A stretch of DNA of 64,000 nt from a virus, in IMG/VR virus record IMGVR_UViG_3300042905_004067. One strand, written 5' to 3'. The position numbers and the translations under genes are program-made. Positions 55,139-63,457 of this stretch are shown piece after piece (position 1 is the first letter of the stretch; the number at the start of each line of letters is the position of its first letter). Under the pieces are notes generated by a model. That model saw only the letters and a list, made by a program, of their open reading frames with translations, was not told the origin of the DNA and ran no database searches.

Positions 55139-55156
55139 AAACCCGCATTTAGCGGG
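55132..55156 (-). terminator. Terminator after the DksA/TraR gene
   Basis: CCCGC-TAAAT-GCGGG followed by TTTTTATTTT on the minus strand. Confidence 0.65.
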
Positions 55157-55358
55157 CTCTATTAGAAACTCGTTGTGCTCGTCGCAGATTTTCTTTATCT
55201 GCTGAATTTACCATTACCAACTCTGGCGCAGTTTTATGATACCAATCCATAAACCCAACATATGGTTTTGCATCAGAACACTTTATGCACTTTGTTGTAT
55301 AAGGGAGTGCTTCTAGTCTGGCTTTTGGAATTTCACAACCACATGTTTGACAGTTCAT
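55149..55358 (-). CDS. DksA/TraR C4 zinc-finger protein
   Basis: CQTCGCEIPKARLEALP.TTKCIKC; start at 55358 (ATGA overlap, GGAG SD). Confidence 0.85.
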   Translation of the reverse strand: MNCQTCGCEIPKARLEALPYTTKCIKCSDAKPYVGFMDWYHKTAPELVMVNSADKENLRRAQRVSNRAR

Positions 55359-55546
55359 TGTTCTTTCTCCACGCATTTTACTAGTTTACGCTGTATTGCA
55401 TAAGTGCCATCAAGATGCATTTTACGTTCTGCAATCGTTTTCTTTCCTAGTGCGCGTTTAGCAACTTGAAATACTATTTGTTTGCGAAAAGCACGACCTT
55501 GTGCTTCTGCTCCCATATCAATAACATCCCATTTACGTTTAGCCAT
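55355..55546 (-). CDS. Small basic hypothetical protein
   Basis: ORF directly after a consensus promoter. Confidence 0.6.
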   Translation of the reverse strand: MAKRKWDVIDMGAEAQGRAFRKQIVFQVAKRALGKKTIAERKMHLDGTYAIQRKLVKCVEKEQ

Positions 55547-55588: not shown

Positions 55589-55880
55589 TCCGGTTTTTCA
55601 GATGCGGGAAAACCGGGAAACCCCACTGCTTCAAGCAGCCATTGCCAGTTCGTTGGCAATTATATTTGCAACTGTTTATTTACGACACTTGTTACCCGTG
55701 TCGGGTATCTCCTTCTTTCATACTCTGCTCCAGTCGATGCCATTCAGCCCCTTAAATGCCCCGCTGCAACGAGGACTTGTTTCGCCATCCCTAAAGTTTG
55801 CAGAGGCTTTAGGTTAGGCTAATGGAGCCGAGGGGATTCGAACCCCTGTGCTGTTAGCATTTCTGTCCGAGATCAACAAT
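55589..55880 (-). ncRNA. ssrA: Circularly permuted (two-piece) tmRNA
   Basis: Acceptor piece ~55880-55823 ends AGGGG-TTCGAAT-CCCCT-CGGCTCCA. Coding piece starts GGGGCTGAATGGCATCGAC at 55751. G3:U70 pair, pk1, tag ORF ANIIANELAMAA* (55669-55631) and a further pseudoknot. Confidence 0.92.
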
Positions 55881-55886
55881 ACCAAA

Positions 55887-55967
55887 AGCGTAGTGAGGGA
55901 CCTGCACCCATGCTCAATCACCGTTTGCAACCAATGATCCTAGTAGGCATCACACACCTAGCCACGC
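55887..55967 (-). tRNA. Atypical tRNA-Cys(GCA)-like gene
   Basis: GCGTGG/CTACGC acceptor, U73, hairpin with TTGCAAA loop, GGG-TGCAGGT-CCC T-like arm; arm lengths non-canonical. Confidence 0.5.
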
Positions 55968-56155: not shown

Positions 56156-56536
56156 TTAAAGTTTAGCGCGTGTCAATGATAAAAGTTTTTGAATCTGTAA
56201 ATCGCACTGGGCTTCTCTTTGAACCCCTGGCCAAAAAATATAATCTTTTACTTTATTTTTCTTTAAACTCGCTAAAAGTGGAAGAATAGTTTTTTCTATT
56301 TCCGTCATTCTGGCTTTTAGTAATTCATCATATTGACTTTTTACTGCCATTGCGCCTTCACATGTAGAATTCATTTCAAGAATCATATCCAGTTTGTCTT
56401 TAATTGCAGCAATTTCTGCTGGCTCAGCAACGTTTGGTGTTAATAAATTACCAAGTTCATTTTGATCTACGGTGCTGAAACCAAAATCTCCTTCTAGGAG
56501 CGATGGATCGATATTGTACTGAAAGGGGTCTACCAT
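56156..56536 (-). CDS. Hypothetical protein
   Basis: Likely start MVDP at 56536, 5 nt after ATAAATA; DFGFS.V and KDYI.WP motifs seen in T4-like phage proteins. Confidence 0.65.
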   Translation of the reverse strand: MVDPFQYNIDPSLLEGDFGFSTVDQNELGNLLTPNVAEPAEIAAIKDKLDMILEMNSTCEGAMAVKSQYDELLKARMTEIEKTILPLLASLKKNKVKDYIFWPGVQREAQCDLQIQKLLSLTRAKL

Positions 56537-56816: not shown

Positions 56817-57374
56817 TTATCGAACCACAAATGAATTAATTTTAAAACAATAGTTATTCATTATAATACCAGAAGCAGTTCCAACATTAATACTGCGAAC
56901 AGAACCATATTGTGGAATATAAAGAATATCATCACACATACTTAGAACGTTTTCGGGAACCCCAATTTGTTCCTGACCAAAAATCATCACATAATGAATA
57001 TTTGGATCAAATTGATATTCGTTTACGTCTTGTGCTTCAGGAACATTGTCAATTCCAAGTAATTTAACTTTTTCTTCATGGGAGGAAATAATTTCTTTAA
57101 TGTAGGAATTGAGGTTGTCAATAGTTTTAACATGACGGAAGTTGGTATAGTGATGGGTGCCAACGGTTCCCCGCCTGTCGTATTTTTTTTGTCCATAGAT
57201 CGCTACTTCTTTTGCCAAAAACGCATTAGCGTTTCGAATAACTGTGGCAATATTAAAATCATTGCCAATATTACAGCAGATAACTGTATAGTTAAAACGC
57301 TTATGGTTAAGATCTGCTCTAATAGCGTCATCGGACCAATATTTATAGTGATCAATTAGATTTCTTGTGTCCAT
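56817..57374 (-). CDS. SpoU/TrmH-family (SPOUT) RNA 2'-O-methyltransferase
   Basis: N...DFNIATVIRNANAF, IFGQEQIGV, IPQYGSVRSINVGTASGI. Confidence 0.9.
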   Translation of the reverse strand: MDTRNLIDHYKYWSDDAIRADLNHKRFNYTVICCNIGNDFNIATVIRNANAFLAKEVAIYGQKKYDRRGTVGTHHYTNFRHVKTIDNLNSYIKEIISSHEEKVKLLGIDNVPEAQDVNEYQFDPNIHYVMIFGQEQIGVPENVLSMCDDILYIPQYGSVRSINVGTASGIIMNNYCFKINSFVVR

Positions 57375-57804
57375 TTTCAACTAATTCAAAATCATGAGAA
57401 ATTCTTGACTCTTCGCACAAAGTCATAAAGTGCCAACCCTTTTTGCACAATGCACCAGGTCGACCAGTTATTTGACAAATTCCATAAGAATCGTCTTCTG
57501 CTTTGTCTATTAATGTTTGAATATTCTTAAATAGAATTTCATTGTTTGTCTGAACCGTGTAATAGAATCTTAGTCCTCCAAATTTTTCTTTTATTTGAAG
57601 AACCTCAAATACTGTATCTGAGTTTTTTTGCTTTTCTTCTGTCAAATATTGCTCAACAGTAGAACAAACTTTGTCTAGCAATCCATACCAACCATTGGGA
57701 AGTTCATTGTATGTTTGTTCAGACATGGTTTCAAAAACCAGTGGATATTTTTCAATGAGAATATCAATAGGTTCTTTAACCTCTTTAATTTCATTTTCAT
57801 TCAT
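57352..57804 (-). CDS. Conserved phage hypothetical protein
   Basis: GW..L...QIKEKFGGLRFY...C...G..G motif. Confidence 0.7.
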   Translation of the reverse strand: MNENEIKEVKEPIDILIEKYPLVFETMSEQTYNELPNGWYGLLDKVCSTVEQYLTEEKQKNSDTVFEVLQIKEKFGGLRFYYTVQTNNEILFKNIQTLIDKAEDDSYGICQITGRPGALCKKGWHFMTLCEESRISHDFELVENGHKKSN

Positions 57805-62347: not shown

Positions 62348-62466
62348 TTTTTAGATTCCTTTTTCTTAATTTTTTTATTGAAAATACGATCCCAGTTGTC
62401 AGACCATTTTTTATAGTCTACTGGTCTATATCTATCGCCTTTTCCAGCACCGTGTTTACCACCCAC
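62344..62466 (-). CDS. 40-aa basic hypothetical protein (GTG start, not in ORF track)
   Basis: MGGKHGAGKGDRYRPVDYKKWSDNWDRIFNKK...; GKG...R......NWD.IF small phage protein pattern; overlaps both neighbours. Confidence 0.6.
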   Translation of the reverse strand: MGGKHGAGKGDRYRPVDYKKWSDNWDRIFNKKIKKKESKK

Positions 62467-63457
62467 GATTAAAACTCACTTCTTCTCTATTTCCAGAGAA
62501 TGATATGTTTGCATTTAAGAACTCTAATGTATTTGAAATAAATTCAGTCATTTTAAGCAAACTACTAAATTGATGTAGAAACCCTTTGTAGTATACTTTG
62601 AATACGCCAACTGTTTCTAAAACATCACACTTATTTATGATGAGATAATCACAACCAGAAAGTTGCATTGATTCAATCAACTTATCAAGATTTAACCAAT
62701 TTACTAGTCTCTTACGGCCGGTTGTGGAACCGTATTCTTGGCCAAGTTCAATGATTCGATTTAGTGTTTCATCCTCCCATAAAGTTTCAGGGAACAGTGG
62801 ATCTACACCACTTTTCGTATCGTAGATTTTAGCAACACCAATACTACGACCAATGTACTTTGGAGGAATACCAAGAGAACATGCTCCGTATGGTAAAGTA
62901 GTACTACTCGTCACAAATGGATAGTTTCCATGATCAATATCAAGCCACACACTTTGTGCTCCTTCACATAAAACTGCACCAGAAAGATGTCCATCCCAGA
63001 TATACTGAGCATCTAGAACATCTTTTGCTTGTGTACCACAACGAAGCATCTTATCGGCATAGCATGGAGCAATTCCTTGTCCTGTAGTTCCAAACTTCTT
63101 TTTTAATTCTTTCATGTCTCGTTCAATATGCTCATCTGTGATGATATGAGCATGAGGAGAAACTTTTACAAGAGAGACATCAAAACCATTTTGCTCCAAG
63201 TAAGAAATTTCTTGTAAAAACTTATTTACATGAAGAACACATCCAGGACCAATAATTGATTTTTTACCTTTAAAAATTCCACAAGGAACACTGTGTGTTT
63301 TATACTTTTTGTCTTTGATGTAAACGGTATGTCCCGCATTTGGACCACCATTCCATCGACAAACATAATCGTATTCGTGCGCGATTGCATTAGAAATTTT
63401 TCCTTTGCCTTCGTCGCCCCATGCGAGTCCATAAATTACGTCTGCATAATCAATCAT
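62456..63457 (-). CDS. purA: Adenylosuccinate synthetase (short form)
   Basis: WGDEGKG, GGPNAGHT, GTTGQGI.P.Y.DK, EGAQ, G.YPFVTSS, EYGSTTGRKR, NKCD. Confidence 0.93.
   Translation of the reverse strand: MIDYADVIYGLAWGDEGKGKISNAIAHEYDYVCRWNGGPNAGHTVYIKDKKYKTHSVPCGIFKGKKSIIGPGCVLHVNKFLQEISYLEQNGFDVSLVKVSPHAHIITDEHIERDMKELKKKFGTTGQGIAPCYADKMLRCGTQAKDVLDAQYIWDGHLSGAVLCEGAQSVWLDIDHGNYPFVTSSTTLPYGACSLGIPPKYIGRSIGVAKIYDTKSGVDPLFPETLWEDETLNRIIELGQEYGSTTGRKRLVNWLNLDKLIESMQLSGCDYLIINKCDVLETVGVFKVYYKGFLHQFSSLLKMTEFISNTLEFLNANISFSGNREEVSFNRGW

Follow-up and report, generated by a model that had tools for sequence, protein, structure and literature searches.

A circularly permuted (two-piece) ssrA gene, very probably a functional one, lies at positions 55883-55590 on the minus strand of a viral contig; its carrier is a T4-like myovirus that is uncultured. 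The contig, IMGVR_UViG_3300042905_004067, is an 88.6-kb IMG/VR virus record with an estimated completeness of about 49%; the window analyzed here, a stretch of 64,000 nt, is part of that record. The gene belongs to a family recovered from virus contigs, and comparison within this family supports its structure, corrects its predicted tag peptide, and draws attention to a conserved, folded RNA in the spacer between the two tmRNA pieces.

Identification and anatomy of the gene

The Rfam model for permuted tmRNAs (RF04321, tmRNA_permuted) matches 55883-55631 (minus strand) over its full length, model positions 1-213, scoring 73 bits where the gathering score is 47 (E 4e-12, computed over the entire window; Rfam 15). 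A reading made earlier from the letters of this DNA (hereafter the sequence-only reading) had proposed a phage-encoded two-piece tmRNA at this locus; the Rfam score bears this out, as do the viral portal, terminase, and tail genes on the same contig. The permuted order is visible in the coordinates: T-arm and 3' acceptor strand (55847-55823) lie upstream of the 5' acceptor strand (55751-55745), and the 3' end of the tmRNA at 55823 thus precedes its 5' end at 55751, as originally described. ARAGORN, which had been suggested as a check, calls no tmRNA for 55883-55590 in the window; it does call permuted tmRNAs in the relatives L005, L196, and L018 and in phage Melnitz. Because the Rfam match and the relatives establish the gene, we regard this miss as a false negative. 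The elements of the gene are as follows.

55883-55823, minus: acceptor piece, 61 nt (Rfam alignment; pair counts on 56 and 94 distinct relatives)
55883-55878, minus: helix 2a, 5' strand GGUAUU, in the acceptor piece
55859-55856, minus: helix 2b, 5' strand UGCU, in the acceptor piece
55853-55851, minus: helix 2c, 5' strand CAG, in the acceptor piece
55847-55831, minus: T-arm AGGGG-UUCGAAU-CCCCU, in the acceptor piece
55830-55824, minus: 3' acceptor strand CGGCUCC, in the acceptor piece
55823, minus: discriminator A; the next letters are UUA, with no CCA
55822-55752, minus: 71-nt spacer (intervening sequence), a conserved folded RNA
55751 to about 55590, minus: coding piece, roughly 160 nt
55751-55704, minus: start of the coding piece (Rfam match, pair counts)
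55751-55745, minus: 5' acceptor strand GGGGCUG, pairing 7/7 with CGGCUCC, including G3:U70
Between the 5' acceptor strand and the helix 2 strands, minus: D-loop analogue AAUGGCAUCGA, in the coding piece
55733-55731, 55729-55726, and 55709-55704, minus: 3' strands of helices 2c, 2b, and 2a, the last being GAUACC
55703-55668, minus: pseudoknot 1 (pk1), ending 10 nt before the resume codon
55703-55698 with 55688-55683, minus: pk1 stem 1, CGACAC/GUGUCG (covariation)
55695-55691 with 55672-55668, minus: pk1 stem 2, GUAAC (loop)/GUUGC (pseudoknot search and covariation)
55657-55631, minus: predicted tag frame, resume codon GCC at 55657-55655 and stop UGA at 55633-55631; translation ANELAMAA*, 8 codons
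55638-55626, minus: hairpin CUGCU/AGCAG with the stop codon in its loop (pair counts)
55625-55579, minus: 3' pseudoknot and putative terminator; UGGG/CCCG, then CCGGUUUU/AAAACCGG, then a U-run
55616-55609 with 55597-55590, minus: second stem of the 3' pseudoknot, CCGGUUUU/AAAACCGG, with at least 10 compensatory variants

The letters A-UUA at 55823 agree with the earlier claim that CCA is not encoded, and an encoded CCA is likewise absent from all 113 relatives described below; post-transcriptional addition would therefore be required. At the far end of the gene, the second stem of the 3' pseudoknot together with the U-run looks like a terminator. The U-run follows this stem directly in one class of relatives, and a separate terminator hairpin follows in the other.

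Viral contig and gene neighborhood

The contig encodes a T4-type portal (PHROG 213, E 1e-189), a large terminase, and tail genes. Its portal is only about 51% identical to the portals of cultured cyanomyophages; the phage is thus T4-like but uncultured, and no near relative of it has been deposited. The tmRNA gene stands in a cluster with tRNA genes, six of which are called by ARAGORN in the window, and tRNA genes adjoin the tmRNA gene in relatives as well.

56817-57380, minus: SpoU-family RNA methyltransferase, flanking the tRNA/tmRNA cluster
56176-56148, minus: sigma-70-like promoter TTGACA-17-TACAAT, 11/12 consensus match, ahead of tRNA-Gly, tRNA-Tyr, and the tmRNA gene
56139-56068, minus: tRNA-Gly(UCC) (ARAGORN; Rfam tRNA, 66 bits), no encoded CCA
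56064-55982, minus: tRNA-Tyr(GUA) (ARAGORN; Rfam tRNA, 56 bits), no encoded CCA, directly upstream of the tmRNA region
55580-55553, minus: perfect sigma-70-like promoter TTGACA-16-TATAAT, 12/12 match, with TG before the -10 element
55149-55376, minus: DksA/TraR C4 zinc-finger protein (Pfam PF01258), flanking the tRNA/tmRNA cluster

Judged by its sequence and placement, the promoter at 56176-56148 is the likely start of a precursor transcript holding tRNA-Gly, tRNA-Tyr, and the tmRNA. The promoter at 55580-55553 would serve the next unit, a 63-aa ORF and the DksA/TraR protein, and on this reading marks where the tmRNA unit ends. Homologs of the SpoU and DksA/TraR proteins each occur in about one-fifth of related loci, with median identities of 70-75%; these neighbors, together with the further tRNAs, fit a translation-support region.

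Two other features of the contig are recorded here in their own right. Between tRNA-Tyr and the tmRNA gene lies an 81-nt tRNA-like stretch (55887-55967, minus), with a T-arm-like GGG-UGCAGGU-CCC and an acceptor-like stem, which is kept in L003 and in part in L213. It receives no ARAGORN call and no listed Rfam tRNA match, and its minimum-energy fold closes with GCGUGG/CUACGC at a z-score of only -1.2. tRNA-like processing of this stretch, if it takes place, would set where the tmRNA acceptor piece begins at its 5' side. Farther along, 62456-63457 (minus) encodes a 333-aa adenylosuccinate synthetase homolog (Pfam PF00709, E 1e-83) whose best PHROG family is annotated "2-aminooxy adenylosuccinate synthetase." From sequence, its product is read as putatively PurZ-like, with ordinary PurA and the PurZ of the diaminopurine (Z-base) pathway both candidates.

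Relatives and covariation

A search with the 24-nt pk1 core found it in 71 IMG/VR contigs, and a looser pattern for the 3' pseudoknot matched at least 119; the set of relatives drawn from these at least 119 virus contigs comprises 113 complete genes, 95 of them unique. The acceptor stem was located by requiring full pairing (L213, with 6/7 positions paired, was left out), and the 7/7 pairing of all 14 different acceptor-stem sequence pairs among the 113 genes reflects this locating criterion. G3:U70 and the discriminator A are invariant across the 113.

Among 56 distinct close relatives, the whole structure is 97.0% paired, with changes on both sides in 21 pairs against 12.4 +/- 1.4 in column shuffles (0/500 as good); when partners were slid by 1-3 columns as a control, only 3-7 pairs changed on both sides. 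The acceptor stem, which bridges the two pieces, is 100% paired in these 56, with compensatory changes in 4/7 pairs and U-G at position 3:70 (that is, G3:U70) in every sequence. Compensatory changes also affect 4/5 pairs of the T-arm and 7/7 pairs of helix 2b/2c. The comparison across related phage contigs thus supports both the permuted tmRNA structure and the 7-bp acceptor stem with G3:U70 that the sequence-only reading had drawn.

The helices nearer the coding region were examined in a more diverse set of 94 distinct relatives. Here helix 2a (GGUAUU/GAUACC) is 99.8% paired with 5/6 pairs compensatory, and helix 2a and pk1 together are 96.2% paired with 12/17 pairs compensatory; pk1 stem 2 (GUAAC/GUUGC) is 99.1% paired and shows compensatory changes. 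Of the helix 2 pairings proposed earlier, CAG/CUG and UGCU/AGCA are upheld by covariation, and ATCTC/GAGAT is not: its middle pair is broken in 53 of the 94 relatives, it does not exceed the controls, and it overlaps helix 2a. Across tmRNA lineages, helix 2 is unalignable, and the alignable part is short.

An exhaustive search for H-type pseudoknots in the 64 nt before the resume codon of 60 sequence variants recovered one pk1 layout in nearly all of them, a hairpin directly after helix 2a whose loop pairs with a segment nearer the resume codon. The end of pk1 lies 9-11 nt from the resume codon in 60/60 variants, close to the distance in Escherichia coli, which is roughly 11 nt. The earlier pk1 had combined CGACAC/GUGUCG with TACCC/GGGTA; the former stands, with covariation in its favor, and the latter is rejected, being only 82.8% paired, matched by 460 of 500 column shuffles, and in conflict with helix 2a.

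Downstream of the tag, the placement of the stop codon in a hairpin loop is confirmed by pair counts for CUGCU/AGCAG (99.3% paired in the 56 close relatives, one pair with compensatory changes), and silent changes in the final Ala codons are mirrored by changes on the opposite strand of the hairpin. For the second pseudoknot of the sequence-only reading, covariation backs the stem CCGGUUUU/AAAACCGG; GUGGG/CCCGC never varies, and covariation therefore neither supports nor refutes it.

Tag peptide

The predicted tag is ANELAMAA, eight codons followed by UGA (translation of 55657-55631). It had been offered earlier as an alternative, with resumption at GCC, to a primary tag ANIIANELAMAA resuming at GCA. 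The primary version is refuted: the stretch between GUUGCA and the GCC/GCU codon measures 9 nt in some relatives and 10 nt in others, which places GCA out of frame in the many that have 10, and GCA is used by pk1 stem 2. The alternative is instead the one borne out, since exactly eight codons and a stop are kept in 112 of the 113 relatives; ARAGORN reads the same eight-codon frame in L005 and L196. The tags of these 112 genes start with Ala and always end in Ala-Ala; there are 19 variants, the commonest being AAPMRMAA (40), ANQLAMAA (16), and ANELAMAA (11). A point against a functional tmRNA is that ANELAMAA is short, with M-A-A at its end where the classical tag has L-A-A.

A conserved, folded spacer

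Spacer lengths in the family fall at 5-6 nt (28 genes), 71-74 nt, 95-99 nt, and up to 165-173 nt. The 71-99-nt class, to which the present gene belongs, is a single conserved module whose elements in the window are listed below.

55819-55817 with 55786-55784, minus: GCC/GGC pairing enclosing the 7-bp hairpin
55813-55807 with 55796-55790, minus: 7-bp hairpin (36-sequence pair test)
55803-55799 with 55768-55764, minus: loop-loop pairing CUGCA/UGCAG (compensatory variants)
55774-55770 with 55763-55759, minus: second hairpin CCUCG/CGGGG (CCUCN/NGGGG in the family)

In 36 sequences the module is 87.3% paired against 78.9% in shuffles, with both-side changes in 9 pairs against 5.9 (0/500); the loop pairing occurs in the compensatory variants CUGUA/UACAG and CUGCG/CGCAG. 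Searching 1.18 Mb of DNA from related phages with a covariance model of the module yields 66 copies, all of them inside tmRNA spacers, with none elsewhere in that DNA and none near the Melnitz gene. The 71-nt spacer matches no Rfam family, and its similarity to LOOT RNA is at chance level (12-17 bits against a cut-off of 46). By-eye comparison with the cores of twister (with which it shares GCCUAAC), pistol, HDV-like, and hammerhead ribozymes found none that fitted. A peptide gene is also rejected, since relatives have ACG or AGC in place of the AUG at 55787, which is thus unconserved.

It is possible, at somewhat under even odds in our judgment, that the 71-nt spacer is a functional RNA in its own right, built of two loop-joined hairpins and confined to this phage tmRNA family. 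A tmRNA can function without the module, given that some genes of the family have spacers of just 5 nt. The module may be a small RNA travelling as a passenger and set free in stable form by the RNase P and 3' processing cuts; it may alternatively act in cis, directing the cuts that make the two tmRNA pieces, and self-cleavage may be one form of such action. The structured spacer would hinder purely exonucleolytic 3' trimming, which weighs against the functional reading of the gene.

Other spacers in the family have features of their own. Those of 95-99 nt (for example, L017:1629-1723) hold an extra hairpin with a covarying stem (CCCGAAG/CUUCGGG, CCUGAAG/CUUCAGG, UCUAAAG/CUUUAGA) and a nearly invariant loop, UCCUAGG, through whose palindrome CCUAGG two copies could pair. 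Long spacers of another class, unrelated to this module, measure 126-131 nt in L210, L214, L215, L220, L221, L232, L233, L235, and L240, and 165-173 nt in L002, L012, L013, L024, L054, and L069. These are closed by the 8-bp stem GACACUAU/AUAGUGUC or by GGUUAG/CUAACC, share the motifs GCGUAAAAC, GACAAAGC, and AGAUGGUG, and have no Rfam match, even in a 156-nt search.

Relation to known tmRNAs and origin of the permutation

The first demonstration of two-piece tmRNA came from Caulobacter (Keiler, Shapiro and Williams 2000, as cited in PMC9004378). The novelty that the sequence-only reading implied for a phage version does not hold: a two-piece ssrA of the Methylophilales phage Melnitz was published by Buchholz et al. 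(2022; PMC9004378), who found 53 of 133 unique phage tmRNAs, mostly aquatic, to be two-piece by ARAGORN. Two cultured phages, Melnitz and Synechococcus phage S-CAM1, carry such genes. The 2025 tmRNA database (PMC11915505) includes 79 sequences from phages and notes that CCA is not in every case encoded at the CCA position. The phage two-piece tmRNA is an already known kind, to which this gene adds a member.

With the RF04321 kind, the gene shares the order of acceptor piece, spacer, and coding piece; the acceptor stem and helix 2 bridging the pieces; G3:U70; pk1 before the resume codon; a tag ending in Ala-Ala; a stop codon in a hairpin; and one 3' pseudoknot. It differs in being phage-borne, in lacking an encoded CCA, and in its eight-codon tag and conserved folded spacer. 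Among the cultured phages, the Melnitz gene (MZ577097 46013-46345; 113 bits with RF04321) and those of pelagimyophages are likewise two-piece genes of aquatic T4-like myophages with an early-type promoter ahead. Melnitz differs, however, in its SAR11-type T-loop GGCAGUA (canonical UUCGAAU here) and in encoding CCA; its spacer, 133 nt long, is unrelated, its tag has 14 codons (ANDNYVPVDYALAA), a glutamine riboswitch lies downstream, and its gene has no blastn similarity to the one in the window. A riboswitch of this type is rejected for the 55883-55590 locus, where neither the glnA nor the Downstream-peptide RNA motif matches at E <= 10. The permuted tmRNA of S-CAM1 (NC_020837, 108734-108917, minus; 99 bits with RF04321), also from a cultured T4-like cyanophage, is alike in its lack of an encoded CCA and its near-identical T-arm. 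Its spacer is 5 nt long, within the 5-6-nt range of 28 relatives of the present family, but its 21-codon cyanobacterial-type tag and its coding domain are different.

Among bacterial forms, the betaproteobacterial RF01850 genes of Rhodocyclaceae (L073, L075, L135, L143) have a similar helix 2a (GGUUGU/GCAACY, against GGUAUU/GAUACC in the phage), a similar pre-resume sequence (AUAAWUGCC AAY GA), and, like the phage gene, a tag ending in A-[IM]-A-A and a comparable layout of the 3' pseudoknot. They differ in their pk1 sequence, in a 10-codon tag (ANDEQFAIAA), in an ACC encoded after the acceptor stem, and in a final GC-rich hairpin. The SAR11 and Rhodocyclaceae genes found with a tag-region pattern have the same order of elements as the phage family, but their pk1 sequences differ, their tags are longer, and they encode (A)CC(A). 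That pattern matches SAR11, Rhodocyclaceae, and standard tmRNAs alike, and is thus no lineage marker.

The sequence-only reading had raised the possibility that the permutation arose independently in phages, apart from the alpha- and betaproteobacterial and cyanobacterial events. That none of the clade models reaches its cut-off could be taken in this sense: alpha_tmRNA (RF01849, cut-off 50 bits) gives no match at E <= 10, cyano_tmRNA (RF01851) gives 30.6 bits against a cut-off of 70 and covers only model positions 56-120, the tRNA part, and beta_tmRNA (RF01850), the best-fitting, gives 30.3 bits against 84. Further, a search of one genome from each of 185,579 species of bacteria and archaea did not find the 24-nt pk1 core, and blastn against 50,697 deposited phage records matches only about 30 nt of T-arm and acceptor. 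Yet bacterial permuted genes have the same kinds of elements in the same order, and the beta model, although below its cut-off, aligns end to end, including the tag region and the 3' hairpin (46.7 bits in the relative L005, also under 84). Exchange with known lineages moreover occurs, as evidenced by a hybrid gene, L222:3261-3496 (plus), in which a tRNA-like domain with the SAR11/Melnitz-type T-loop GGCAGUA and the 5' end GGGGGUGAACUAGAAUCGA is joined to a coding domain with this family's pk1, the AAPMRMAA tag, and the 3' pseudoknot; the sequence suggests that domains have been exchanged between phage tmRNA types. Fast divergence in phages suffices to explain the low scores, and we consider an independent permutation improbable. 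From sequence comparison, we instead read the family as a branch of the known permuted tmRNAs that has diverged fast in viruses and stands closest to the beta form.

Proposed function and alternatives

We infer the processing, charging, and tagging steps below entirely from bacterial two-piece tmRNA and T4 tRNA maturation. A precursor including tRNA-Gly and tRNA-Tyr would be transcribed from the promoter at 56176. Host RNase P would cut before G55751, and trimming to A55823 would fall to a host 3' processing activity like RNase Z/BN, alone or together with exonucleases; the host CCA-adding enzyme would then add CCA there; the 71-nt spacer would be released as a by-product. The 61-nt acceptor piece and the coding piece of about 160 nt, held together by the 7-bp acceptor stem and helix 2, would be charged by host AlaRS through G3:U70 and, with host SmpB and EF-Tu, would enter stalled ribosomes. 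Translation would then resume at GCC (55657), adding (A)ANELAMAA, whose Ala-Ala end would mark the protein for host proteases. Neither SmpB (PF01668) nor a CCA-adding enzyme (PF01743) is found in the 88.6-kb record, which is about 49% complete; this is consistent with reliance on the host's SmpB and CCA-adding enzyme, and with no CCA encoded either, function would depend entirely on the host. The benefit to the phage may be that ribosomes are kept free during take-over of the cell or after mRNA damage. That the tmRNA counters mRNA- or tRNA-cleaving defenses, as also put forward earlier, is speculation.

A tmRNA look-alike could also act as a decoy that binds SmpB or ribosomes without tagging, or persist as an inert relic; a tmRNA-like RNA of mycobacteriophage DS6A that has no reading frame is cited in PMC11915505 as inhibiting host tmRNA. 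The very short tag, the missing CCA, and the failure of ARAGORN on this copy would all suit such a role. But although the tag occurs in 19 different sequences, 112/113 genes keep a frame with an Ala start, eight codons, an Ala-Ala end, and a stop; pk1 keeps a distance of 9-11 nt from the resume codon, and all helices needed for tagging covary; the phage's own tRNAs also lack CCA, so its absence from the tmRNA is no defect. We therefore judge a decoy or relic to be quite unlikely. Still less credible, at the very edge of what we would entertain, is a bacterial gene on a contig misclassed as viral, or one recently captured from a host. Integration at tmRNA genes is common, and prophages can contain pieces of such genes (PMC9004378), but here the gene is complete, it shares its contig with the T4-type portal, large terminase, and tail genes, all of its relatives come from virus contigs, and its pk1 core occurs in 0/185,579 species genomes. 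A functional phage tmRNA thus remains our preferred reading.

Significance

The family described here is a large, purely viral branch of two-piece tmRNAs, represented on at least 119 virus contigs and, judged by the pk1 core, lacking a counterpart in the species genomes searched; it comes with a covariation-backed structure and a corrected eight-codon tag. Surveys that depend on ARAGORN miss some tmRNA copies. The findings support the view that many aquatic T4-like phages bring a ribosome-rescue RNA into the cell, relying on the host for SmpB, AlaRS, and CCA addition. New biology, if any, is most likely to come from the conserved folded RNA in the spacer: if it is indeed functional, the spacers of phage tmRNA genes would be a dedicated launch site for small phage RNAs.
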